A DNA stretch of 64,000 bases from Eubacteriales bacterium. Its GTDB lineage: Bacteria; Bacillota; Clostridia; Oscillospirales; CAG-272. The position numbers were made by a program, and so were the translations under genes. Positions 24,031 through 56,285 of this stretch are shown here, piece by piece; the first letter of the stretch is position 1; every line of letters starts with the position of its first letter. The stretch is taken from positions 33,931 to 97,930 of the forward strand of contig JAZNNR010000018.1 of NCBI GenBank assembly GCA_045580325.1, written 5' to 3'. The notes under the pieces were generated by a model. It searched no databases. It saw only the letters and a list, made by a program, of their open reading frames with translations, and was not told the DNA's origin.

Positions 24031-24384
24031 ATGAATAAAACTATTAAAGAACTTGCAGTTGAACTTACCATAGAAATCACTGCCGTTTGTGATACTATCA
24101 AAGGCAGAGCTGTATTTGTTAGTCAGCTTTTGCGCTCCTGCTCTTCAATAGGTGCAAATAGCTATGAAGCAAAATATGCGCAAAGTACCGCAGACTTTGT
24201 AAATAAACTTGAAATAGCTCTCAAAGAATGTTATGAAACCGACTATTGGCTTGAAATACTGTTCAAGGTAGGCTCAATGGATGAAAACACCTATAAAACA
24301 CTTGCAAATAAATGCGGTATTATTCGCAGAAAACTCATCGCATCCATCACCACAGCAAAGGGGAGCAGTCGAGGACAAAAGTGA
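24031..24384 (+). CDS. Four-helix-bundle protein (23S rRNA intervening-sequence protein family)
   Basis: ATG at 24031 follows AATGAGGTGA. Motifs: SSIGANSYEAKYAQSTADFVNKLEIALKECYETDYWLEIL. The upstream part of track ORF 23821..24384 is read-through of the repeat array. Confidence 0.85.
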   Translation: MNKTIKELAVELTIEITAVCDTIKGRAVFVSQLLRSCSSIGANSYEAKYAQSTADFVNKLEIALKECYETDYWLEILFKVGSMDENTYKTLANKCGIIRRKLIASITTAKGSSRGQK

Positions 24385-24967: not shown

Positions 24968-25116
24968 TAAAATATACCTTTTGCTCTCTTGACCCATATA
25001 GAGAGTGTGTGTTTATTGACACGAAAATAAGTGCAAACCCGTAGGGGCTGGCGCCCACGACAGCCCGTGCGTATATTTAGGCTTTTCGGGACGTCGAGGA
25101 CGCCGGTCCCTACAAC
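24968..25116 (-). repeat. Repeat R copy A (contains a REP-like GTAG-hairpin...hairpin-CTAC element, family E1)
   Basis: 24968-25097 is identical base for base to 25731-25860 (130 nt). Contains GTAG-GGGCTG-gcgcccacga-CAGCCC and GGGAC-gtcgaggacgcc-GGTCC-CTAC. Confidence 0.9.
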
Positions 25117-25175: not shown

Positions 25176-25733
25176 ATGCAGAAAAAATCACGCCAAAGAA
25201 AAGAACGACGAAACATGGACCGATCAACCTCTGATGTTCTATCAAGGCAAACGCAAACAATGAAAACAGCTTTCCTCGATTATTTAGGTGCTACAATTAT
25301 GTTTTTTGTGATGGCGCTCGTTGTATTTGTGGTTGGACTTTTGACCGAAGACGCATCGCATTCCAAACGTATTATTTTTGGTGCCACACCTATTATTCTT
25401 GGTTTCACTATATTTTTCGCTTTTCTTTTTCTTCGTCGATTTGTAATTTTTATAAAGATAAATAAGATCAAATCTTCAAGTGAACAAACTATCAAAATTA
25501 CTTGTAAGAAAGTGGCATTTTTAACTCAACCTATATCCAGAAATTCTTTCGTAATTATATGTATTGTTTTAACAGACGAAAACGGCAAAAAGTATTATGA
25601 CATAGTAAATGGAATTTCTGATATTGCTAAAAAAAGAACACGAGCGGAGCTATTAAACGCAAAGATTACACTTAATTGCTATGCGAATACAAAATTTGTG
25701 AAAACCTATCAGGTCGATACAGTCAAGGAGTAA
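25176..25733 (+). CDS. Hypothetical membrane protein (two TM helices plus a C-terminal domain)
   Basis: 185 aa with RBS GAAAGGAAG. It is flanked on both sides by repeat R. Confidence 0.65.
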   Translation: MQKKSRQRKERRNMDRSTSDVLSRQTQTMKTAFLDYLGATIMFFVMALVVFVVGLLTEDASHSKRIIFGATPIILGFTIFFAFLFLRRFVIFIKINKIKSSSEQTIKITCKKVAFLTQPISRNSFVIICIVLTDENGKKYYDIVNGISDIAKKRTRAELLNAKITLNCYANTKFVKTYQVDTVKE

Positions 25734-25882
25734 AATATACCTTTTGCTCTCTTGACCCATATAGAGAGTGTGTGTTTATTGACACGAAAATAAGTGCAAA
25801 CCCGTAGGGGCTGGCGCCCACGACAGCCCGTGCGTATATTTAGGCTTTTCGGGACGTCGAAGGCGCCGTCCCCTACCAAAAG
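25731..25882 (-). repeat. Repeat R copy B (E1 family)
   Basis: The first 130 nt are identical to copy A. It then diverges as GGGACGTCGAAGGCGCCGTCCCCTACCAAAAG. It starts on the stop codon of the preceding gene. Confidence 0.9.
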
Positions 25883-27097: not shown

Positions 27098-27129
27098 ACG
27101 GACCGTCGAGGACGCCGATTCCTACCAAA
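27098..27129 (-). repeat. Partial E1 element (hairpin-CTAC half only)
   Basis: GGACCGTCGAGGACGCCGATTCCTACCAAA begins 2 nt after the hydrolase stop. It shares the GTCGAGGACGCC core with the other copies. Confidence 0.75.
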
Positions 27130-27137
27130 TGATAACG

Positions 27138-27203
27138 TCGATATGCGCTTCACGCTCGATATGCCGCTTGCGGCTCGATATGTTTTGCCTGACGGCAAAA
27201 CGA
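27138..27203 (+). repeat. Three TCGATAT + hairpin units (array A2)
   Basis: CGATAT at 27139, 27157 and 27176, followed respectively by GCG-cttca-CGC, GCCG-ctt-GCGGC and GTTTTGCC-tgac-GGCAAAAC. Confidence 0.85.
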
Positions 27204-27228: not shown

Positions 27229-28032
27229 ATGAACAACGTAAACAAAACACTATACATTCCGCTCTACGGCAAGGCTTTTGTGAGCAAAAAAGGAATTATC
27301 CTTCACGACGAAAAAGCCGAGGAAATATGGTCGGCGGAAGGCTTTAAATTAAAAGGTAAGTCAAAATCGAAATGGCTCGCCTACTATATGGGAATGCGCT
27401 CTGCCGTTTTTGACAGCTGGGTTAAAGAAAAAATGAGCGCTACACGTGATGCCGTGATACTCCACGTCGGCTGCGGAATGGACTCAAGAGCTTTGCGTAT
27501 CGGCGAAACAGGGCATTTATGGTACGACATTGACTTTCACAAGGTCATAGAGGAGCGCAAAAAATATTACGCCGAATCGGGCAATTATCATATGCTCGGA
27601 ATCGACGTAAGAAGTGCTGATTTTACTGAAAATATAGAAGGATGCGAAAACGCGATAATTATTATGGAAGGCGTGAGTATGTATCTTGAAACTGAAGAAC
27701 TAAGGCTTTTATTTAAAAAGCTGACAAAGCACTTTGGGAGCGTCCGCGTTCTTATGGACACTTATACCCTTTTTGCCGCCAAAATGTCAAAATTCAAAAA
27801 TCCTATAAACGACGTCGGAGTTACCACTGTTTACGGACTCGATGATCCGAAAATCTTAGAGGAAAACACAGGCGTGAAATTTATAAAAGAGCATGAAATG
27901 ACTCCCGATATTTTGATAAACGAGCTTAAGGGAATAGAAAAATCGGTATTCAAGAGGGTTTTTGCGGGTAAATTTTCCAAAAAGCTTTACAGGCTTTACG
28001 AGTTCGCAGGTAGCTCTGCTTACGGCAGATAG
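27229..28032 (+). CDS. Class I SAM-dependent O-methyltransferase (LCMT/TcmP-like)
   Basis: 267 aa with VILHVGCGMDSRALR, which matches the GxGxDxR SAM motif of the leucine carboxyl methyltransferase family. Confidence 0.7.
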   Translation: MNNVNKTLYIPLYGKAFVSKKGIILHDEKAEEIWSAEGFKLKGKSKSKWLAYYMGMRSAVFDSWVKEKMSATRDAVILHVGCGMDSRALRIGETGHLWYDIDFHKVIEERKKYYAESGNYHMLGIDVRSADFTENIEGCENAIIIMEGVSMYLETEELRLLFKKLTKHFGSVRVLMDTYTLFAAKMSKFKNPINDVGVTTVYGLDDPKILEENTGVKFIKEHEMTPDILINELKGIEKSVFKRVFAGKFSKKLYRLYEFAGSSAYGR

Positions 28033-28298
28033 ATCGGAAGCATATCGTAAACGATGTCTTTCAGATGGCAAGGCTCCACCTCCTCGGTAGCGATAAGATA
28101 AAGAAATCGCTCGGCGACTCTGCTCTCACGGCAGACGTCCCTCGCAAATTCGCACTCGTCTTGTGTATCTCCGACAAACTCGGCAGACACCGAAAAGATC
28201 CCTTCGCCAAGCTCACCGTGCTCTTCAAAAAGCATGTATTTTATGCTTCTGCCTGACGGCAGATGCTTAATTAGTTCTATAATTTTATTATTTTTCAT
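28020..28298 (-). CDS. Hypothetical small protein (92 aa)
   Basis: ATG at 28298 gives MKNNKIIELIK. It converges on the methyltransferase gene and overlaps its 3' end by 13 nt. Confidence 0.55.
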   Translation of the reverse strand: MKNNKIIELIKHLPSGRSIKYMLFEEHGELGEGIFSVSAEFVGDTQDECEFARDVCRESRVAERFLYLIATEEVEPCHLKDIVYDMLPIYLP

Positions 28299-28568
28299 AT
28301 TTTCTTTCCGCAAACACAATATATTGTATTTTTTCTCTTTCGGTCTGAATTTATGATACCATATTTTGATAATCTATTATACTATCCGAGTTGCAATTTT
28401 TTCGACATATTTGTGCGCTAAATGCTCAAAATCGGGTGCTTTTGACACTTTAGAACATTTTTATTGTGCATTTTATCAAATAGCATTCGCTTCGTATTGC
28501 AAAAATCAAAAAAATATGTAAAATATACTATATGTTCCATACACAGTTTTAGTTAAAGGAGTACTTAA

Positions 28569-29189
28569 ATGAAAGAAAACAAGACACAAAGCTCTGGCAA
28601 ATTCAAAAAGATTTTCTCTCTTGCCTGGGTGTTTTTCAAGATCGGTCTTCTTACCTTTGGCGGCGGTTACGCTATGATACCGATAATTCAGTCAGAGGTG
28701 TCCGAAAAACGCAAATGGATAAGCGAAGAAGAGCTTATGCAGGTTATTACGATCGCCGAATCGACTCCCGGCCCCATCGCAATAAACGCGGCGACCTACG
28801 TCGGATATAAGATCTGCGGATTTTTTGGATCTCTTGCGGCAACCGTTTCGGTCGTTCTTGCTCCCTTTACGATCATATATCTGATCTCGCTCTTCCTCGA
28901 GCAGTTTATGGAGTTTAAAGTGGTTGAAAACGCATTCAAGGGAATTCAGATCGCAGTTGCTTTCCTCATTCTCTCTGCGGGAATAAAGTTCATAAAGAAG
29001 CTGAAAAAACAGCCCTTCCCTATCATCACGGTCGCTCTGACGGTTACAGTTATGCTGCTGCTTGACATTTTTGCTCTTTCCTTCTCATCGGTATATCTCA
29101 TTCTTATGGGCGCTTTTGCCGGACTTATGCTTACTGTTGTCCAGCGCATACAAAGCAAAAATAAAGCGGACAAGGAGGAAAACAAATGA
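28569..29189 (+). CDS. chrA: Chromate transporter family protein (short-chain CHR, first half of pair)
   Basis: 206 aa with LLTFGGGYAMIPIIQ and TIAESTPGPIAINAATYVGY. Confidence 0.85.
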   Translation: MKENKTQSSGKFKKIFSLAWVFFKIGLLTFGGGYAMIPIIQSEVSEKRKWISEEELMQVITIAESTPGPIAINAATYVGYKICGFFGSLAATVSVVLAPFTIIYLISLFLEQFMEFKVVENAFKGIQIAVAFLILSAGIKFIKKLKKQPFPIITVALTVTVMLLLDIFALSFSSVYLILMGAFAGLMLTVVQRIQSKNKADKEENK

Positions 29190-29791
29190 TTTATCTTGAG
29201 CTCTTTCTCACATTTTTCAAGATAGGAATAGTTTCCTTCGGCGGCGGATACGCTATGCTCGCTCTTATGCGCGACGAAATAATGGCTCACGGCTGGCTCG
29301 GCGATGAAATGATAAAGAATTTTATCGGTATAGCCGAATCGACTCCCGGTCCTATCTCGGTCAATATGGCAACATTCGTCGGAAGCTCGCAGGCAGGATT
29401 TTTAGGTGCGCTCTGCGCGACTCTCGGTCTTATTCTCCCCTCGTTTATAATAATACTCATAATAGCAGCTCTTTTGAAATCTCTTATGAAAAACGTTTAC
29501 GTAAACGGAGCGCTTGAAGGAGCACAGCCCGTAGCTGTCGGTCTTATCGCCGCAACGGGTATCAGCTTTATGATCTCTATCGTTTTCCCGAGCTTTGGTA
29601 ACGTAAACATTCTCGAAGCGGTAAAAAACATCAAAACCGACGTCGAAACCTATATTATGGCGGCTCTTGTCTTTGGTTTTATGCTTGTTTTCAAGAAAAT
29701 AAAGAAAAAACAGCCCTCGCCCGTTCTACTCATTCTTGTAGCGGCGCTTCTCGGCGTTGTAATCTGCCCACTCGCAGAGCTTATAAAGTAA
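29186..29791 (+). CDS. chrA: Chromate transporter family protein (short-chain CHR, second half of pair)
   Basis: 201 aa with IVSFGGGYAMLALM and GIAESTPGPISVNMATFVG; a 4-nt overlap with the first half. Confidence 0.85.
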   Translation: MIYLELFLTFFKIGIVSFGGGYAMLALMRDEIMAHGWLGDEMIKNFIGIAESTPGPISVNMATFVGSSQAGFLGALCATLGLILPSFIIILIIAALLKSLMKNVYVNGALEGAQPVAVGLIAATGISFMISIVFPSFGNVNILEAVKNIKTDVETYIMAALVFGFMLVFKKIKKKQPSPVLLILVAALLGVVICPLAELIK

Positions 29792-29797
29792 CCAGCC

Positions 29798-30571
29798 ATG
29801 AAAGATATTCCTTACGAGCTTGCAATTCCGGGCGACCCTGAAAGATTTAAAAATGCCTGCGATCTTGCACGAAACAGCGCGCACAGCGACGAGCAGTCAA
29901 GCGAGATAGGCACTCTTTCGGAGCGAAGACTTCACTCGGTACTGAAATTTTACTACGAAAGCGATCAAAGCCTTCACGAAATAAAGGTCGGACGCTTTTT
30001 TGCCGACATTCTTACAGGTAAGCAGATAATAGAAATTCAGACGGGCGACCTCGGACGGCTCGGCAAAAAATTAGACGTTTTTCTAAAAGAACACAACGTT
30101 ACGGTCGTGCATCCTATGGCTAAAAACTGCGTTATTACGCGAATTGATCCCGAAACAGGAGAAGCACTCAGCCGAAGAAAAAGTTCTGTTCACGCCGATA
30201 TTTACAGCGCTGTGCCGCAGCTTTACCGCATAAGACCTTATCTGTCGAGTCCGAGTCTCGCGATCCGACTTGTATTTCTCTCGCTCGAGGAATACAGGAC
30301 TCCTAACTGCAGTAAGCGCGGAAGCCGCAAGGGCTCTGTTCGACTTGAACGCTTCCCCGAGGAGCTTCACTACGAAATAGACCTCTCCGTACCCGAGGAT
30401 TACAAGATATTTCTGCCAAAGGAGCTTCCCGAGCTCTTCACCTCGGGCGATATAAAAAGGCTTACCCGATGCAGAGAAGCCGCCACCCTTATGCTGATCC
30501 TCACCACCGTCGGCGTGGTAGAACGTATAGGCAAACGCGGGAATGCTTATGTTTATAAAATTAAACATTAG
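29798..30571 (+). CDS. Hypothetical protein, possible PD-(D/E)xK nuclease fold
   Basis: 257 aa. The segment GTLSERRLHSVLKFYYE...HEIKVGRFFADIL...IIEIQTG resembles the D...E-x-K/Q core of restriction-endonuclease-like proteins. The fold assignment is tentative. Confidence 0.6.
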   Translation: MKDIPYELAIPGDPERFKNACDLARNSAHSDEQSSEIGTLSERRLHSVLKFYYESDQSLHEIKVGRFFADILTGKQIIEIQTGDLGRLGKKLDVFLKEHNVTVVHPMAKNCVITRIDPETGEALSRRKSSVHADIYSAVPQLYRIRPYLSSPSLAIRLVFLSLEEYRTPNCSKRGSRKGSVRLERFPEELHYEIDLSVPEDYKIFLPKELPELFTSGDIKRLTRCREAATLMLILTTVGVVERIGKRGNAYVYKIKH

Positions 30572-30646
30572 GGTTCCACGCCAAAGAACTTTTATAAAAA
30601 ACAAAGAAACACTTATGACCGTACAAATCATAAGTGTTTTTTATAT

Positions 30647-31861
30647 TTATAGTGTTTTAGCCGCGTCAACAAGCGAGTCCTTTTTATTTTTGACCTCGCC
30701 CTCGATGACGAGCCATAGCAGCTTTTTGAGTATGCGTCCCATTTCGGCTGACTGCGGTATTCCTGCATCTGCAAGGTCTTTTCCACTCACGTCGAGCGAT
30801 TTTATCGACAGACACGCGTTTTCTTTTATCAGCTTTTCAGCGCATTCGCGTATTTTTATAAGGTTTCCCGTGTCCGCCCTGTGATAGCTGTCAAACGCTT
30901 CTCTGAGAGAAATTATCTTGTCAAGATCGTCGAAAGTATTTTCCGTGAGAAGATGTGAGACATCTTTTTCGAAGCGTTCCGACGCAAAATTCGGCATCTC
31001 AAAGGAAAGTGATGACACGAGCTTTTTGACAAGCCTATGGGTTTCGTTATCCGTTTTAAGTGTGCGGATCATTCCCCCCGCGTCTTCTGCGCTCATATGC
31101 GAGAAGAGTGCCGCATATCTTACCGTATGGTCCTTTGGGCAGTGTGAGAGAACCTCTATATTTTCAGCAGGAATTTCACCGAAAAGCTCTGAAAGGACAG
31201 GATAAAACTGCTTTAATATTTTAGTCGCGCCATTTCCTAAAATAAGCTTTGTAAGCTCTGCGTAAATTCGCTCTACCGATATATTTTTCAGAAGACCTCT
31301 GTTTCTTATAACCGACTTTGCCGTTTTTTCTTCCACCTCAAATTCAAGGACCGAGGCAAAACGCATAGCCCGCAGTATACGAAGTCCGTCTTCGTTAAAT
31401 CTTGTATCGGCATCTCCTACGCACCTTATTATCTTACGCTCTATATCCTTTTCACCGTCAAAAAGGTCGATAAGTCCCTCGTCTGGATTATACGCCATAG
31501 CGTTTACGGTAAAATCACGTCTTGAAAGGTCTTCCGATATATTTCTGACAAAGGTAACCTTCTCGGGATGTCTGTTATCGAGATATTTCCCATCGGTACG
31601 GAAGGTCGTTATCTCTATATTTTCGCCCTCATATACAACGGTAACAGTGCCGTGCTTAAGACCTGTCAGAATTATATCGCAGTCGGGAAAGCTTTCAGAG
31701 GTTTCCGAAGGGAAAGCATCTGTTGTTATATCAAAATCGTGCGGTACTTTACCCATAAGCATATCACGCACGCATCCGCCTACCGCGTAGCCGTGATGAC
31801 CGTGATCCTTCAGCCTGTCAATTACCGCGCATATTTTCTCGGGCAGATTTATCTCACGCAT
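30647..31861 (-). CDS. cca: CCA-adding tRNA nucleotidyltransferase
   Basis: 404 aa. Contains GYAVGGCVRDMLMGKVPHDFDITT and RDFTVNAM (class II nucleotidyltransferase head). Confidence 0.9.
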   Translation of the reverse strand: MREINLPEKICAVIDRLKDHGHHGYAVGGCVRDMLMGKVPHDFDITTDAFPSETSESFPDCDIILTGLKHGTVTVVYEGENIEITTFRTDGKYLDNRHPEKVTFVRNISEDLSRRDFTVNAMAYNPDEGLIDLFDGEKDIERKIIRCVGDADTRFNEDGLRILRAMRFASVLEFEVEEKTAKSVIRNRGLLKNISVERIYAELTKLILGNGATKILKQFYPVLSELFGEIPAENIEVLSHCPKDHTVRYAALFSHMSAEDAGGMIRTLKTDNETHRLVKKLVSSLSFEMPNFASERFEKDVSHLLTENTFDDLDKIISLREAFDSYHRADTGNLIKIRECAEKLIKENACLSIKSLDVSGKDLADAGIPQSAEMGRILKKLLWLVIEGEVKNKKDSLVDAAKTL

Positions 31862-31929
31862 ACTATTCCCTTCCTTTCCAAATAGCTGTCTTTACATAAT
31901 TATACTTTAACTTATCCTCATTGTCAAGT

Positions 31930-31972
31930 AAAAAGAGAAAAATCGGAATGTGCCGCAAAGCACATTCCGATT
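31930..31972 (-). terminator. Intrinsic terminator after the ABC/unknown locus
   Basis: AATCGGAATGTGC-cgcaaa-GCACATTCCGATT, with a T-rich run on the minus strand. Confidence 0.7.
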
Positions 31973-31999
31973 TGAGTTTATACTCTCTGTGTTTGGCTA

Positions 32000-33046
32000 T
32001 TAACCTGTAATACCCGAACGTTCAATACCCTGAATGAGGTATCTCTGACAGAACAGATATATGATGACAAGCGGGAATCCAACAAGAATTGCACAAGTAT
32101 TCTTGATGGTCGGCTGATAAAGCGCTCCGGCTGCTCCGCTCTCCTTGATAAGCTCTGTAAGAGAAGCGGGAACGTCCTGCGCAAAATATGCCAGCGTCTG
32201 TACGCTTTGGTTGTTTGTGTAGAAGGTCATCGAATAGAAGTTATCTGCCCAAGTCCACGAGAACGCGAATACGAAGATCGTGATCATCATCGGGATAGAG
32301 ATAGGAAGAATGATCTTAAAGAAGGTTCTTGTTACACTTGAACCGTCAATATAAGCCGATTCTTCAAGCTCGTCGGGAACGCCGCGATAGAACTGTCTCA
32401 TCATAAATATGTAAAGACCGTTCTTAAGACCGATACCCGTCAGCGAAAGAATTACGAAGGGATACATTGTATTAAGCAGCGAGATCTTTCCAATTCCTAA
32501 GAGTTCAAAAAGTCCGAGAATATCAAAGTTCTTAAACTGAAGGAAGAGCGCGTACTTAATAGTCTGTGTAGGTACCATCATTGTTATAAGCACAAAGGTG
32601 AAGAGAATACCGCTTCCCTTGAACTTATACTTTGCAAATCCGTATCCAACAAGGCTACATACGAAGGTCTGAAGAAGTGCACAAACTATTGACAAAAGTC
32701 CTGTGGTCAAAACAGCTTCCAAATAGTTGTTTTCTATGATCAGTGCCTTATACGTATCGATTGTGAAATGCTTCGGTACAAAGTTTACGGTAACGTCCGC
32801 AAAATCTTCAACGCTCATAAACGATTCGGTTATTACCGAAAACCAAGGGTTGAGGATTATATAGCACATACCAATGAGAATTACGTAGCGGAAAATCTTC
32901 CAAAGTAACGTAGTAGCAAAGTGCATTGACAGATACTTTGTTTTGAATCTTTTCCATCTGGAGGTTCTCTCAAATTCAACGCGAATCTTATTCTTTGATT
33001 CTTTGAGAACTTTGGAATTTGTATTAGCTGAATTCATATCTTGCAC
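32000..33046 (-). CDS. Carbohydrate ABC transporter permease (MalG-like)
   Basis: 348 aa, six TM helices, EAA loop EESAYIDGSSVTRTFFKIILP. Confidence 0.85.
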   Translation of the reverse strand: MQDMNSANTNSKVLKESKNKIRVEFERTSRWKRFKTKYLSMHFATTLLWKIFRYVILIGMCYIILNPWFSVITESFMSVEDFADVTVNFVPKHFTIDTYKALIIENNYLEAVLTTGLLSIVCALLQTFVCSLVGYGFAKYKFKGSGILFTFVLITMMVPTQTIKYALFLQFKNFDILGLFELLGIGKISLLNTMYPFVILSLTGIGLKNGLYIFMMRQFYRGVPDELEESAYIDGSSVTRTFFKIILPISIPMMITIFVFAFSWTWADNFYSMTFYTNNQSVQTLAYFAQDVPASLTELIKESGAAGALYQPTIKNTCAILVGFPLVIIYLFCQRYLIQGIERSGITG

Positions 33047-47649: not shown

Positions 47650-47727
47650 GGGGCGTTGCCCCTGAACCCCACTCAGGAAACTTTTGAAAAAGTTTCCTGA
47701 TAACCTTCAAAACTTTATAGAAAAGTT
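47650..47727 (+). repeat. Three-hairpin intergenic repeat, family E3 copy a
   Basis: GGGGC-gtt-GCCCC; CAGGAAACTTTT-ga-AAAAGTTTCCTG; AACTTT-atag-AAAGTT. The order and core (CTTTTGAAAAAG...CAAAACTTT) match 55085-55151. Confidence 0.75.
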
Positions 47728-47730
47728 AAG

Positions 47731-47763
47731 GGCTTCTGCTGAAAAGCAGAAGCCTTTGGTTTT
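47731..47763 (+). terminator. trpB intrinsic terminator
   Basis: GGCTTCTGCT-gaaa-AGCAGAAGCC followed by TTTGGTTTT. Confidence 0.8.
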
Positions 47764-47770
47764 ATAAATT

Positions 47771-47823
47771 TGAGATAAAATCACACCAATATTTAATGCT
47801 GAACTCACCGACAAATTGAAATT
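47771..47823 (-). repeat. Cassette 3'-boundary module B (long form)
   Basis: The minus strand directly after the HAD stop reads AATTTCAATTTGTCGGTGAGTTCAGCATTAAATATTGGTGTGATTTT, homologous to the sequence after the 51761 gene stop. Confidence 0.7.
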
Positions 47824-48606
47824 TTACAAACTCTTTAATATCCTATGTTCTATAAATTTTGCAACACCATCGGCATCGTTGCTTTCTATAACATAATCAG
47901 CAACAGATTTAACTTCATCAATTCCATTGGAAACAGCAATACCCAACCCGCACATTTTTATCGGTTCAATATCGTCTTGGTCATCTCCAAAATAGGCCGT
48001 TTCATTAGGAGAACAGTTACAAATATCCAGCATTGCCTTAATGCCATTCCACTTTGTTGCTGTTGTGTTCATTATTTGCAATAAATAACCATGAGCAATT
48101 GTATAATGCAAATCTTCTGTCAATTCTTTTTTGACAAAGTAAAGTGTTTCCTCGCTGTCAAGGTGAACCAGTATTTTTAATACGCCTTCCTTGTTGGCAA
48201 TGCCAATCAAATTGTTTGAAACAATTGTTTTGTAATCTTCAATAGGATGATTTGAGTATGCACGGTCTCCTGTTTCGAGGGTAATTCGAAGATTAGGATA
48301 GCATTTTAACGCATTCAATAAATGCTCGGCACTTCTTTGACAGATAGCATAATCCACTTGTTGATTTCTGTGGATTATTCTTGCACCATTGGAAACAACC
48401 ATTGCATCAAAGCCAATCAAATCACCAAATTGTTTTGTTGTACGTAATGGTCTGGCTGTGGCAACCATGATGTTAATTCCACGTTTCTTACATTCTTTAA
48501 GGACTTTGATAGTACGCGCGGATAGGGTTTTATCTGTATGTAGCAAAGTTCTATCTAAATCCACGACAATAGTCTTAACACTTGCAGTGTTTATCATTGC
48601 TATCAC
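47824..48606 (-). CDS. Cof-type HAD-IIB family hydrolase
   Basis: 260 aa. Motif I VVDLDRTLL and motif IV FGDDQDDIEPIKMCGLGIAVSNG. Confidence 0.85.
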   Translation of the reverse strand: MIAMINTASVKTIVVDLDRTLLHTDKTLSARTIKVLKECKKRGINIMVATARPLRTTKQFGDLIGFDAMVVSNGARIIHRNQQVDYAICQRSAEHLLNALKCYPNLRITLETGDRAYSNHPIEDYKTIVSNNLIGIANKEGVLKILVHLDSEETLYFVKKELTEDLHYTIAHGYLLQIMNTTATKWNGIKAMLDICNCSPNETAYFGDDQDDIEPIKMCGLGIAVSNGIDEVKSVADYVIESNDADGVAKFIEHRILKSL

Positions 48607-48628
48607 ATCCTTTCGTCAAATTGGAATT

Positions 48629-48952
48629 TTACATTCTAATTTCCGTATGAAAATATTGTTCTTGAAATGCAACTTGCCGCATAATTTCATCTTTTGTAAA
48701 GGATACACCTTCTGGTGCTACAACCCACTTTTCTTCTATGTCATCATATCTATGAATGATGGCAATTACTTTGCCACTAAACTCTTTAATGGGTTCATTT
48801 ACGCCAACTATGTATGCATCTTGTTCTTCTCCGTCAGCAGCTACAATACCCTCTATATAGCCGTAGTTGACAGAATAGTAGATGTCTTTATGCTCTGGAT
48901 GATATGTTCCTAATGGGCGATCAACAATAACCTTAACAAATTTTCCTAACAT
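48629..48952 (-). CDS. Small inorganic-pyrophosphatase-like protein
   Basis: ATG at 48952 follows GAGGT by about 6 nt and gives MLGKFVKVIVDRPLGTYHP...NYGYIEG...DGEEQDAYIVG...RYDDIEEKWVV, which resembles short PPase-family proteins. The alternative start at 48982 overlaps the upstream stop. Confidence 0.6.
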   Translation of the reverse strand: MLGKFVKVIVDRPLGTYHPEHKDIYYSVNYGYIEGIVAADGEEQDAYIVGVNEPIKEFSGKVIAIIHRYDDIEEKWVVAPEGVSFTKDEIMRQVAFQEQYFHTEIRM

Positions 48953-48978
48953 TTTAACCTCGACAAAACAGAATTTGT

Positions 48979-49246: not shown

Positions 49247-49413
49247 TTCAAGTTTATCGATTAGATACCTAAGTGAAATAATTATATCATAAAAATTCCA
49301 AAAAGTAAATAGGACGGCTCAATTTTTTACAAATTGAACCGCCCTACGTCTTGTAGGGACAGGCGTCCTCGACTGTCCGCTTATTACGGCGGCAGCAAGC
49401 CACCGCCCTACAA
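49247..49413 (+). repeat. E1+P module copy 1 (REP-like element fused to a leftward promoter and shared 5' UTR)
   Basis: About 97 percent identical to 52373-52531 (roughly 5 substitutions and one 8-nt indel by hand alignment). Core: CCGCCCTAC-gtctt-GTAGGGACAG-gcgtcctcga-CTGTCC...GGCGG-cagcaagcca-CCGCCCTAC. Confidence 0.9.
49281..49309 (-). promoter_or_regulatory. Promoter carried by E1+P copy 1, driving the lipoprotein/PPase-like/HAD operon
   Basis: On the minus strand: TTTACT, 17 nt ending TGa, TATAAT. Confidence 0.65.
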
Positions 49414-49519
49414 AAAGAGTCATAATGATTCTATTAAAAACCGTTATGACTCAAAAAGATTGCAAAACATTGCAATTCTAAATAATTTATGGTACAATGT
49501 AAAAGAGGAGCGTGAGTAT

Positions 49520-50392
49520 ATGGAACTGTATGCAAGTGATATGTTCTTTCGTGGCGGTAACGAAAAAGAACAAGCATATGATTGTTGTATTCATGGAAAT
49601 ATTATTTTTAAAATTGGGGATAATTTACTCTCTGATAACACAGAGTGGTGTGTAAGCGCCTCGGCATATAGGTTCTTGCATACTCTCTTTGAAAATCATT
49701 TTATGGGTGCAGAAGAGTTTATGATTTCTTGTTGTGGACATTTTATGGTTCCGTCGGAAGATAAAATGTCTGTAAGTATCGTCGGTTGCAGTAATGGTAT
49801 TGATTTCAACATTATTCACGAAGACGAAAGCATTACCATTGTAACAGCAGATGATGCTGAATATCATATTCCCTTTGAGGACTATAAAAAGGCGGTTATA
49901 TCTTTTGCTGAACAAGTAATGGACTTCTACAAAGCAAACCCACCCCGTGAGTTTGAAGACGATTTTAACAAAGACGGATATAGTGCTTTTATCACCGAGT
50001 GGTATTCGCTATATGACAAAGCAATTTCAATGCTGAATGAGATTCCGAAAATCAATCCCATTACTTTTGAAGATTATGAAGCTTGCACTGAAAATGAAAT
50101 TACGGGTATAAGTAAGGCAGGAATATCGCTTAAATCATTTGGTTTTATCAATTTCAAAGAGTGTGCATATAATTTTAAGCAAACAGAGGGCGGTTCGGGA
50201 AAGTGTGTCGGAGAAAGAGAAATCACAAACCTTTCATTTACTTTCTACACATCGCCCAAACCGATTATGATTAAGTTCATTGAGAAAAACAAGTTTATTG
50301 AGTTTATCACAAAAGAAAACACGATATATCGTTTTAATAAACTCCAAAAAGAGATTTTGAAATATGGATATAGCACAAGAGATATGACATAA
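49520..50392 (+). CDS. Hypothetical protein (290 aa)
   Basis: ATG at 49520 follows AAGAGGAG. Its own promoter is TTGCAA, 17 nt, TACAAT at about 49470-49497. The first 62 codons of track ORF 49334..50392 are read-through of the E1 repeat. Confidence 0.7.
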   Translation: MELYASDMFFRGGNEKEQAYDCCIHGNIIFKIGDNLLSDNTEWCVSASAYRFLHTLFENHFMGAEEFMISCCGHFMVPSEDKMSVSIVGCSNGIDFNIIHEDESITIVTADDAEYHIPFEDYKKAVISFAEQVMDFYKANPPREFEDDFNKDGYSAFITEWYSLYDKAISMLNEIPKINPITFEDYEACTENEITGISKAGISLKSFGFINFKECAYNFKQTEGGSGKCVGEREITNLSFTFYTSPKPIMIKFIEKNKFIEFITKENTIYRFNKLQKEILKYGYSTRDMT

Positions 50393-51387: not shown

Positions 51388-51416
51388 ATTATACCATAAT
51401 TTCGGCAAAAAGTAAA
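51388..51416 (-). promoter_or_regulatory. Promoter carried by E1+P copy 2, driving the GNAT gene
   Basis: On the minus strand: TTTACT, 17 nt ending TGg, TATAAT. Confidence 0.65.
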
Positions 51417-51512
51417 TAGGACTTTTTACAAATTGAACCGCCATACGTCTTGTAGGGACAGGCGTCCTCGACTGTCCACCTGTTACGGCAGCAGTAAGCT
51501 GCCGCCCTACAA
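51388..51512 (+). repeat. E1+P module copy 2
   Basis: AAAAAGTAAATAGGACTTTTTACAAATTGAACCGCCATACGTCTTGTAGGGACAGGCGTCCTCGACTGTCC...GGCAGCAGTAAGCTGCCGCCCTACAA. The second hairpin has compensatory changes (GGCAGC/GCTGCC versus GGCGG/CCGCC). Confidence 0.85.
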
Positions 51513-51516
51513 CCAA

Positions 51517-51578
51517 AACAGACCCCACAAAACCGTGAGGTCTGTAAAAATATTGTTCGAAGAACTTATCTCTTTGAG
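51517..51578 (-). repeat. Copy 3 of the rpsI tail plus terminator (module T)
   Basis: The minus strand reads TCA AAG AGA TAA (S K R stop), then GTTCTTCGAACAATATTTTT, then hairpin ACAGACC..GGTCTGT. It is near-identical to the sequence after the real rpsI stop. Confidence 0.85.
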
Positions 51579-51596
51579 TTTTAGCAATACCGTTTG

Positions 51597-51683
51597 ATAT
51601 CGTGAATATCGTGGAAATATCGTGTGATATCGTGCATTTATCGTGTGTTTTCGTGCGATATCGTGAATATCGTGAGTATCGCC
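51597..51683 (-). repeat. Nine phased (A)TATCGTG / CACGATAT repeats with a period of about 10 bp (array A3)
   Basis: TCGTG begins at 51600, 51609, 51620, 51630, 51641, 51651, 51661, 51670 and 51679. Spacings are 9, 11, 10, 11, 10, 10, 9 and 9. Confidence 0.9.
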
Positions 51684-51689
51684 CTATAA

Positions 51690-51760
51690 AGTGTTGCACC
51701 AAATTTGCACCAAAATCACACCAACATTCAACGCTGTTCTGCTCGACAAATTGGAATTTG
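51690..51760 (-). repeat. Cassette 3'-boundary module B (long form)
   Basis: The minus strand after the TGA of the 51761 gene reads CAAATTCCAATTTGTCGAGCAGAACAGCGTTGAATGTTGGTGTGATTTTGGTGCAAATTTGGTGCAAC. Confidence 0.7.
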
Positions 51761-52363
51761 TCATTTTGTAACACACCAAATAGCTAATGGCACATAGCAG
51801 CTCACTAATACGAGTCTTTGCCAAAGACCACCGTGTCTCAAAACAGTATTTGCGAATTTTTCTTTCTCCCCCATAATGAAGAAGCAGAAGAACAAGAACG
51901 TTGCAATAAAGCTAACAAGCGAGATCGCTCCCATAATTATATCTCCCGCTTGAAACTGCATTATTGCCAAGAGCAACGGTACAGCAATTAATGTCATAAA
52001 TCCGATCGCAGAAGCACCGCCGTGAATTTTAGTCAGTGCATCCTCGTCTTGTCTGTTCTCGTTCAATGGACAAAAGCCCGAAATAATCTCACAGCCGATA
52101 CCGTATATTGCAAGTAATATCCATATTGCGATTGCCAAGCCACCGATGTTTTCTTGATACAACGCATACGGAGCAATACAGAAAACGACACCCGAGAGAA
52201 TGCACCACACATTGTAAATCCACTTCACAGGACTTTGCCGTGAGCCCAGTACCGAGAGTGCCATTTCTTTATGCTTATAGTTTGGATAAAAATGCGCAAG
52301 CAACAATGGTAGTAGATTATCTGCTACCAAAATAATAATCCATAATATTTTCATGTATTTCAT
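51761..52363 (-). CDS. Integral membrane protein (DUF998-like, six TM helices)
   Basis: 200 aa, hydrophobic throughout. The N-terminus ILWIIILVADNLLPLLLAHFYPNYKHKEMALSVLG resembles DUF998 as I recall it. Confidence 0.65.
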   Translation of the reverse strand: MKYMKILWIIILVADNLLPLLLAHFYPNYKHKEMALSVLGSRQSPVKWIYNVWCILSGVVFCIAPYALYQENIGGLAIAIWILLAIYGIGCEIISGFCPLNENRQDEDALTKIHGGASAIGFMTLIAVPLLLAIMQFQAGDIIMGAISLVSFIATFLFFCFFIMGEKEKFANTVLRHGGLWQRLVLVSCYVPLAIWCVTK

Positions 52364-52372
52364 CTCGTCAAA

Positions 52373-52531
52373 TTCAAGTTTATCGATTAGATACCTAAGT
52401 GAAATAATTATATCATAAAAATCCCAAAAAGTAAATAGGATTTTTTACAAATTAAACCGCCCTACGTCTTGTAGGGACAGGCGTCCTCGACTGTGCGACT
52501 ATTACGGCGGCAGCAAGCCACCGCCCTACAA
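52373..52531 (+). repeat. E1+P module copy 3
   Basis: About 97 percent identical to copy 1. It is directly followed by module T copy 2. Confidence 0.9.
52407..52435 (-). promoter_or_regulatory. Promoter carried by E1+P copy 3, driving the DUF998-like gene
   Basis: On the minus strand: TTTACT, 17 nt ending TGa, TATAAT. Confidence 0.65.
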
Positions 52532-52535
52532 CAAA

Positions 52536-52603
52536 AACAGACCCCACAAAAATGTGAGGTCTGTAAAAATATTGTTCGAAGAACTTATCTCTTCGAGAAC
52601 TGT
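52536..52603 (-). repeat. Copy 2 of the rpsI tail plus terminator (module T)
   Basis: The minus strand reads CAG TTC TCG AAG AGA TAA (Q F S K R stop), against the real gene CAG TTC AGC AAG AGA TAA. The same spacer and terminator hairpin follow. Confidence 0.9.
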
Positions 52604-52616
52604 TACGACGTTAAGA

Positions 52617-52639
52617 AAACACTCCGGTGGAGTGTTTTA
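52617..52639. terminator. Perfect bidirectional hairpin
   Basis: AAAACACTCC-ggt-GGAGTGTTTT. Confidence 0.5.
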
Positions 52640-52685
52640 GTCGGAACCGCAGCGGCTATGCCGCGAGGATACCTCAGTTCAGCCG

Positions 52686-52722
52686 CAAAAATAAACAGAC
52701 CCCACAAAAACGTGAGGTCTGT
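52686..52722 (-). terminator. rpsI intrinsic terminator (module T, native copy)
   Basis: On the minus strand: ACAGACCTCAC-guuuuu-GUGGGGUCUGU followed by UUAUUUUU, 20 nt after the rpsI stop. Confidence 0.8.
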
Positions 52723-56212: not shown

Positions 56213-56285
56213 GCTGGTATGGCTCAGTTGGTAGAGCAGCTGATTCGTAATCAGCAGGTCGCCGGTTCAAGTCCGGCTACCAGCT
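56213..56285 (+). tRNA. tRNA-Thr (anticodon CGU)
   Basis: Acceptor stem GCTGGTA/TACCAGC, D-loop AGCTCAGTTGGTAGAGC-like, anticodon arm GCTGA-TTCGTAA-TCAGC, T-arm GCCGGTTCAAGTCCGGC. No encoded CCA. Confidence 0.9.

Follow-up and report, generated by a model that had tools for sequence, protein, structure and literature searches.

The closest described relatives of the element analysed here are the REP (repetitive extragenic palindromic) sequences of Escherichia coli, found together with the bacterial interspersed mosaic elements (BIMEs) and the enzyme TnpA-REP (RayT, b0228; group 2 of the REP-associated tyrosine transposases, RAYTs; structure 4ER8), and the REP doublets forming hairpins (REPINs) of Pseudomonas fluorescens with their group 3 RAYTs (Bertels and Rainey 2011; PMC3116915). 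Here we describe E1, a hairpin element of a 64,000-nucleotide stretch (the window) of a Clostridia genome (Eubacteriales bacterium, GenBank assembly GCA_045580325.1, contig JAZNNR010000018.1, positions 33,931 to 97,930 of the forward strand). Judged by its sequence, E1 is a GTAG REP/REPIN. We consider it likely that E1 is a REPIN-type doublet of GTAG REPs that belongs to a widespread Clostridia family and is probably recognised by a cognate RAYT, and our analysis thereby supports the REP/REPIN interpretation put forward when the element was first noticed in the bare sequence (the original prediction). We additionally report a large family of RAYT-like genes from Clostridia which carry an inverted pair of such hairpins within their own reading frame.

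Work on REPs and RAYTs has been almost confined to Proteobacteria. A survey of GTAG REPs spans eight phyla, with Firmicutes unmentioned in its main text (Di Nocera et al., PMC3733652), the REPIN papers searched do not name Firmicutes either, and RAYT genes have been described as "always flanked by two REPs" (PMC2817692). Group 1 RAYTs are reported in Clostridia, and only Groups 2 and 3 have been linked to REPINs (Bertels et al. 2017, PMC5581495), in an analysis restricted to flanking extragenic 16-mers. That Group 1 was not tied to abundant flanking repeats is as one would predict were the cognate REPs located within the gene; Group 1 shares Clostridia hosts with the family presented here, and internal hairpins are not described in that study (PMC5581495). 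Searching for the motif, and for REPs or RAYTs in Firmicutes or Ruminococcaceae, we found no prior description in the literature searched.

As in E. coli, each REP unit of E1 places a 5' GTAG directly before an imperfect GC-rich palindrome. The 27-nt unit consists of GTAG, a 6-bp stem (GGNNNG / CN'N'N'CC), a G.A mismatch, a 2-bp CG/CG inner stem, a TCCT tetraloop and a final G, with GTAGGGACAGGCGTCCTCGACTGTCC as the core of what we call type A; its size and fold agree with the 20-40 nt imperfect GC-rich palindrome by which REPs are recognised. In E. coli the stem is interrupted by a bulge that is required for activity (PMC8266576), whereas here the interruption is the conserved G.A mismatch. 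The original prediction had described GCGTCCTCGA as a conserved loop; it is indeed conserved, but instead of a plain loop it comprises the G.A mismatch, the CG/CG inner stem and the TCCT tetraloop. Elsewhere in the family the inner 2-bp stem covaries (CG/CG, CC/GG, CA/TG), and the G.A mismatch is retained in loop variants. Unlike the E. coli elements, whose host is a proteobacterium, those described here reside in Clostridia, where one and the same loop sequence recurs in different families and genera on stems that vary. Inverted pairs and clusters are common to both. The resemblance to the Pseudomonas REPINs lies in the inverted doublet with a short, fixed-size spacer that can fold as one long hairpin.

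Within the window, 11 GTAG-tagged hairpins occupy six sites, as five inverted doublets and one degenerate singleton. All six sites initially reported are present, as confirmed by sequence, by a 12-mer count and by a covariance model. The 12-mer GGCGTCCTCGAC occurs 10 times with at most two mismatches, compared to 3.2 +/- 2.0 times in shuffled sequence (0/100 shuffles reach 10). The covariance model (R1), built on 120 copies and run with filters off, yielded eight strong matches (E 1e-11 to 1e-16) at 49347+, 51446+, 52465+, 25078-, 25841- and 27090- as well as at the inverted partners 25035+ and 25798+, three weak matches to partners with another loop (49378-, 51477-, 52496-), and no convincing further copy in the rest of the window.

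The doublets fill non-coding gaps of two accessory-gene regions, islands 1 and 2. In island 2 each doublet sets a hairpin of type A against an inverted one of type B, whose loop is TGGCTTGCTG; the island 1 loop is GCGCCCACGA. Type A copy 1 (GTAG-GGACAG-G-CG-TCCT-CG-A-CTGTCC-G; 49353..49379, plus strand; model score 49.3 bits, E 8e-16; DNA fold of -8.7 kcal/mol, z -3.65) and its inverted type B partner (GTAGGGCGG-TGGCTTGCTG-CCGCCG; 49387..49411, minus strand; 12.6 bits, supported also by fold and sequence) form a REPIN-like doublet. Copy 1 is identical in sequence to the in-frame hairpin hp1 of a RAYT gene at locus L022, and the type B loop recurs as hairpin hp1 of the L196 RAYT gene. Model matches and sequence further identify copy 2 (51452..51478, plus), facing a type B variant (GGCGGCAGC-ttact-GCTGCCG; 51486..51510, minus; 9.2 bits), and copy 3 (52471..52497, plus), which has one stem mismatch and faces type B at 52505..52529 (minus). 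On the same evidence, island 1 doublet 1 joins a left REP (GTAGGGGCTG-GCGCCCACGA-CAGCCCG; 25041..25067, plus; 37.1 bits) to a right REP with the type A loop and a slipped stem (25087..25113, minus), and doublet 2 joins a left REP at 25804..25830 (plus) to a right REP with a GAC/GTC stem and loop GCGCCTTCGA (25850..25876, minus). The degenerate single REP (GTAGGAATCGGCGTCCTCGACGGTCCG; 27099..27125, minus) scores 42.3 bits, has sequence support and folds weakly. From GTAG to CTAC the window doublets span 59-73 nt, and the island 1 doublet is also able to fold as a single long hairpin (-20.2 kcal/mol, z -4.0). The second hairpins had been read as compensatory variants of one another; for the most part they are instead distinct REP types with different loops (GCGCCCACGA vs TGGCTTGCTG), and the compensatory idea survives for copy 2 relative to copy 1, in which two G.T wobbles become C-G and A-T pairs.

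Far from being limited to a few copies, the hairpin recurs widely in the Oscillospirales and other gut or rumen Clostridia. A pattern scan (GTAGGNNNNGGCGYCYTCGAC, one genome per species, 3' arm left free) returned the core hairpin at at least 120 loci, mostly from Acutalibacteraceae, Oscillospiraceae, Ruminococcus, Gemmiger, Faecousia and unclassified Clostridia metagenome-assembled genomes, and ~94 of these are real Oscillospirales/Clostridia copies (~90 genomes). Pairing at five or more of the six outer positions is seen in 114/140 pattern matches; those that do not pair are accidental matches within coding sequence, from high-GC Actinobacteria and the like. The covariance model matches 198 times in 650 kb of loci from ~90 genomes. 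Most copies are singletons or 71-81-nt doublets dispersed in ordinary intergenic DNA, and among 28 inverted pairs with GTAG outside, 16 have a length of 71-81 nt.

The stem also covaries, as the original prediction anticipated. In the 120-copy alignment, 98.5% of cells are paired, compared to 82.8% in shuffles (0/500 reach the observed value) and 29-53% in slid controls; double-sided changes number 142 vs 38, and each of the three variable stem pairs occurs with all four Watson-Crick types. GTAG is invariant in this alignment, but there it is fixed by the search pattern. In 648 kb of loci chosen by protein homology only, GTAG ranks 1st of 256 tetranucleotides directly 5' of perfect hairpins of at least 6 bp (282 vs a mean of 48), and 10.7% of all GTAG occurrences directly precede such a hairpin. 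One locus (L026 4409-4576) holds a tandem array of 63-nt units with one type A REP each and nearly identical inter-REP sequence; a CRISPR array was considered here and rejected, because the inter-REP "spacers" are the same sequence, as in a tandem repeat.

A candidate Y1 HUH enzyme is likewise present in this lineage, on the same contigs as matching REPs. By a motif screen over all open reading frames (ORFs) of the fetched loci, we found RAYT-like proteins in L003, L019 and L022, with the search hairpin lying inside the gene, in frame, and encoding V-G-x-G-V-L-D-x'-P. These proteins match Pfam Y1_Tnp, and they match NCBIfam REP_Tyr_transpos (E 3e-18) far better than the IS200 model (E 2e-3). 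Their best sequence match in the PDB is the E. coli TnpA-REP structure 4ER8, which is also the top fold match of an AlphaFold model (predicted local distance difference test, pLDDT, 79), followed by the ISDra2, IS200 and IS608 transposases; hhalign against E. coli RayT gives a probability of 96%. The motifs WQ..(F/Y).(D/E)H.IR and Y-I-x-x-N of the E. coli enzyme, a Y1 HUH protein, are common to the Clostridia family. Relatives number 6,493 at 90% clustering, with 928 clusters at 50% identity having E <= 1e-30, and named members are annotated "transposase" and come from Oscillospiraceae, Ruminococcaceae or Clostridia. In its existence and predicted fold class, then, the family is RAYT-like Y1 HUH. 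Two or three RAYT paralogues may lie within 8 kb (L019 762-1334, 3264-3743 and 5394-5714; L022 5012-5533 and 6104-6640), each with its own internal hairpin type and one of them truncated. Such matching of distinct REP types to distinct RAYT paralogues in one genome is also known from Pseudomonas.

Where the Clostridia genes depart from described systems is in the position of their REPs. REPs flank rayT in E. coli, and in our control, the rayT gene of E. coli K-12, REPs occur to either side and are missing from the interior; Pseudomonas REPINs likewise flank their RAYT. The Clostridia genes instead carry one REP per strand, in frame, inside the ORF: in addition to the sense-strand hairpin, a second lies on the antisense strand and encodes G-x-S-G-T-P-x-P-T, such that the HUH motif is bracketed by an inverted REP pair 185-221 nt long. 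The canonical layout of a REPtron, with REPs flanking the gene, is thus replaced by an inverted pair inside the ORF, although some loci have extra flanking REP copies (L133, L136, L137, L184, L189). In these gene sequences, this placement of the REP pair inside the RAYT ORF in place of its flanks is the new feature on the enzyme side.

An independent sample of 80 metagenome genes, found by two peptide motifs unrelated to the hairpins, contained both hairpins in 55 cases, one in 18 and none in 7. All 63 sense-strand hairpins (63/63) occupy frame 0 and lie between +72 and +147 nt, the majority between +99 and +117; of the 62 on the antisense strand, 58 have a frame in common and lie between +243 and +414 nt, the majority between +267 and +312. 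The density of GTAG hairpins is 3.1 per kb in RAYT genes, compared to 0.26 outside. Furthermore, among the top 120 proteins the residues x/x' track reverse-complement codons (T-ACA/C-TGT, D-GAC/V-GTC, T-ACC/G-GGT, A-GCG/R-CGC, G-GGC/A-GCC). Because these residues follow reverse-complement codons, the internal hairpin is evidently selected as nucleic acid. The peptides encoded by the two hairpins are insertions, at 15- and 12-residue gaps of E. coli RayT (hhalign); in the AlphaFold model one coincides with a beta-hairpin loop and the other with a loop of low confidence. Hairpin types differ by subfamily, e.g., GGGCGAAC-tgt, GGGCGGAT-atc, GGACACCCC-tccc and GGCGCG-acgacctcgg, and an external hairpin at least 85% like an internal one occurs in 18/46 loci vs 6.3 +/- 1.8 when shuffled (maximum 12, 500 shuffles). 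In homologues P0179, P0194, P0173 and P0222, which are 230-330 aa long, in-frame REP-peptide arrays (e.g., VGTGVPDCP) are expanded at both hairpin positions.

It is possible, and we raise it tentatively as an idea on which we would not yet rely, that these genes represent a new REPtron architecture: the transposase gene would itself hold the substrate, and all members of a large RAYT clade from Clostridia would have one functional in-frame REP per strand that flanks the HUH motif and co-evolves with dispersed REPs. If so, the internal copies could be master copies that seed or re-seed genomic REPs, autoregulatory sites on single-stranded DNA or mRNA, or both; a change of REP type would rewrite two surface loops of the enzyme, and REP arrays could grow within an ORF, as in P0179 and P0194. 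Since the REP pair is in frame inside the gene, each RAYT gene would name its own substrate, and this built-in label would make cognate REP/RAYT pairs readable from sequence in a REP family that spans many abundant gut and rumen Clostridia. This bears on an open question, namely the role of RAYTs and the means by which they and their REPs remain matched, and methods that inspect only flanking extragenic DNA could miss the internal arrangement. There may be practical consequences as well. Many RAYT genes lie on ~1 kb contigs or are annotated as partial, which suggests that metagenome assemblies break at the internal REPs, and the repeats also yield spurious ORFs. An example is the call at 49334-50392, in line with the junk peptides that the original prediction had pointed out: it is present in the ORF list with a TTG start, while sister contigs start the gene at 49520.

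Copy 1 offers a view of an element present in some strains and missing from others. Among same-species contigs (97-98% identical), a 64-nt unit (49348..49411, plus strand, defined from BLAST junctions, sequences and alignment) is found in the window and in L207 and is missing from L121-L124, which read ...TTGAACCGCCCTAC|AAAAAGAGTC at this site. The unit consists of GTCTT, hairpin A, the spacer and the inverted hairpin B, ends again in CCGCCCTAC, and so is bounded by this 9-mer on both sides, with both boundaries clean and at CCCTAC. Immediately upstream lies a third GTAG hairpin, type C, with a long AT-rich loop (49312..49347, minus; called by a terminator-like scan at 49347-49309 and seen in the sequence), whose foot is CCGCCCTAC, apparently the target or a duplicated 9-mer. 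The original prediction had noted this "extra" CCGCCCTAC before the element and suggested two mutually exclusive folds; the CCCTAC/GTAGGG pairing does appear in the DNA minimum-energy structure, but a two-state switch is unsupported, and the segment is the foot of the minus-strand third hairpin (49347-49312) as well as the 9-nt direct repeat that bounds the polymorphism.

By analogy with E. coli and Pseudomonas, the folded single strand is probably recognised by the cognate RAYT, through the GTAG guide, the stem with its conserved G.A mismatch, and the loop. TnpA-REP cleaves at a CT dinucleotide (PMC8266576), and the indel boundaries (CCCT|AC) contain CT beside a GTAG-guided hairpin, a sequence arrangement compatible with such cutting. 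On this model the RAYT would cut at a nearby CT and rejoin the ends, such that units would be gained, lost and clustered near existing REPs. The internal REP sequence itself tracks the REP type around the gene. By inference the RAYT would bind these hairpins and cut them, the source genome presumably encodes a cognate RAYT, and the 64-nt polymorphism may be enzyme-made. The IS200/IS605 elements (IS608, ISDra2) provide a further parallel: they share the Y1 HUH fold, single-strand subterminal hairpins and a guide tetranucleotide 5' of the hairpin, and they insert on the 3' side of a short target, make no conventional duplication and excise precisely, which the CTAC-bounded 64-nt unit fits. Their hairpins, however, are external to the transposase ORF, and the gene moves as a whole, whereas the Clostridia hairpins bracket only ~190 nt of the ORF, for which reason the full RAYT gene cannot be the mobile unit.

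Several observations weigh against this account of E1. No RAYT gene lies within the 64-kb window, and the REP_Tyr_transpos score of 65.9 bits is under the curated cut-off of 80. The 11 window units fall in two clusters, and part of their multiplicity stems from duplication of larger modules (D1-D5) as opposed to independent insertion. With a 9-nt direct repeat flanking the 64-nt polymorphism, slippage during replication or deletion by short homology would leave the product that enzymatic excision leaves, and the difference may be either a gain or a loss. Finally, G.T and A.C mismatches are equally rare (4 vs 5), which gives no pointer to RNA over DNA and does not tell which strand or molecule is selected.

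The alternative that survives best, which we nonetheless regard as unlikely, is that the hairpins are host regulatory structures, i.e., terminators, stabilisers of 3' untranslated regions (UTRs), or sites for nucleoid or regulatory proteins, and were never mobilised. The elements are intergenic and mostly 3' of stop codons, and REPs of E. coli act in 3' UTRs; the type C hairpin, moreover, scores as terminator-like. Hairpin types A and B, in contrast, have no T run and are not called by an intrinsic-terminator scan, which calls only type C and the separate D4 hairpins, and these canonical terminators adjoin the elements as structures of their own. Nor would host regulation readily account for the site that has divergent genes on its two sides, the occurrence of the same hairpins in frame within a transposase gene, the precise presence and absence among strains, or the lack of strand asymmetry in G.T mismatches. 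A regulatory role and REP identity are compatible, as REPs can be both.

We consider it very unlikely that the intergenic copies, instead of being an independent repeat family, are fragments left by the decay of duplicated RAYT genes. The hairpin pair is integral to the RAYT ORF, and truncated RAYT genes exist (L089, L019 5394-5714), as this explanation would have it. Doublet lengths are bimodal, however (71-81 nt in intergenic DNA vs 185-221 nt in genes), spacers of intermediate length lack a MPNHIH-coding remnant, island 2 doublets mix hairpin types of different RAYT subfamilies, and what differs at site 1 is a discrete unit of 64 nt. A derivation of the doublets by deletion within the RAYT interior was also examined and dropped, as their spacers have no convincing similarity to the gene.

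The cassette-like setting invites comparison to integrons, in which folded single-strand attC sites likewise lie among genes that lack promoters or vary, with local gene content differing from strain to strain. Indeed, unrelated genes are flanked by the same modules in the window, and the genes between elements differ among strains; the same-species comparison covers island 2, where the DNA downstream of rpsI (51575-52685) is a strain-variable hotspot (window vs L207, L121 and L205-L210). L207 is without the DUF998 unit, its junction falling within the repeat, five other small genes occupy this place in L121, and other strains have a ParA/ParB/SpaA block with no REP, with a DMP19 gene nearby in some. 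Under the tentative REPtron architecture raised above, REP doublets would mark, and may help create, the borders of strain-variable gene units such as these. That the elements are instead attC-like sites of an integron-like system, with cargo moved by a site-specific recombinase, appears highly improbable. Pfam scans of 20 neighbouring proteins gave only housekeeping and small accessory genes and no integrase or recombinase near either island, upon which this reading was rejected; the RYYYAAC/GTTRRRY cores of attC are missing and the termini read GTAGGG / CCCTAC, the candidate enzyme is of another class, and in place of arrays the copies are mostly singletons or short doublets in ordinary intergenic DNA. 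In addition, a cassette-sized indel, the HAD hydrolase and 117-aa genes (window 47652-48959), which are absent from same-species contigs (L121 3690-3835), has no REP at its inspected borders, and homologous recombination between 191-nt repeats would account equally well for the missing DUF998 unit.

Least probable of all is a structured non-coding RNA (a small RNA or a cis-regulatory leader), which a conserved, covarying hairpin beside a promoter might suggest, given that searches of Rfam 15 at gathering and permissive thresholds found no match at the elements and only chance-level hits in 49.2-52.8 kb, that the elements occur in both orientations relative to neighbouring genes and also inside an ORF, that inverted doublets make the strands equivalent, and that G.U pairs are not favoured on one strand, the mismatch counts giving no signal of selection at the RNA level.

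The window itself is chromosomal (44% GC) and holds housekeeping genes, including rpsI/rplM, a CCA-adding enzyme and RlmL-type methyltransferases, along with small accessory genes. On the minus strand of island 2 a fixed order repeats, from terminator to doublet to a strong extended -10 promoter to gene. The promoter that the original prediction placed next to the element is borne out: a promoter-like TTTACT-17-TG-TATAAT, part of repeats D5/D1 (49281..49309, minus; copies at 51388-51416 and 52407-52435), directly follows each island 2 doublet and reads into minus-strand genes. Directly before doublets 2 and 3 on the same strand lies a terminator-like hairpin, ACAGACCTCAC..GTGGGGTCTGT with a T run (repeat D4; 51518..51545, minus; copies at 52537-52564 and 52695-52722). 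The proposed rule that elements keep one orientation relative to cargo has these six sites as its only basis. The island 2 repeats comprise a 95-nt repeat in three copies, flanked by 69-nt and 73-nt repeats, and island 1 contains a 146-nt module (73 nt plus the doublet; 24968..25113, second copy 25731-25876, 97% identity) downstream of two unrelated genes.

A few minor features of the window may merit mention. The 3' end of a 23S-rRNA-IVP-family gene holds a GTCGAGGAC remnant (24368-24376), possibly of a REP that has decayed, and a copy of the 38-nt leader repeat D6 comes after it. Beside the single REP (27135-27190, minus) are three CATATCGA(G/C) direct repeats ~20 nt apart, and doublet 2 is followed (51594-51632) by a run of (G/T)ATATCGTG units that is longer in a sister strain (L121 6405-6490); similar "gcatatcgc" repeats adjoin a REP in another genome. 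A tRNA-Thr (CGU) at 56213-56285 is the sole Rfam or ARAGORN match in the window. GC skew flips sign at 28000-32000, and gene orientation is plus up to 30571 and minus from 30647, a change that resembles a replication-terminus-type switch; to its left, type A hairpins are on the minus strand, and to its right they are on the plus strand.

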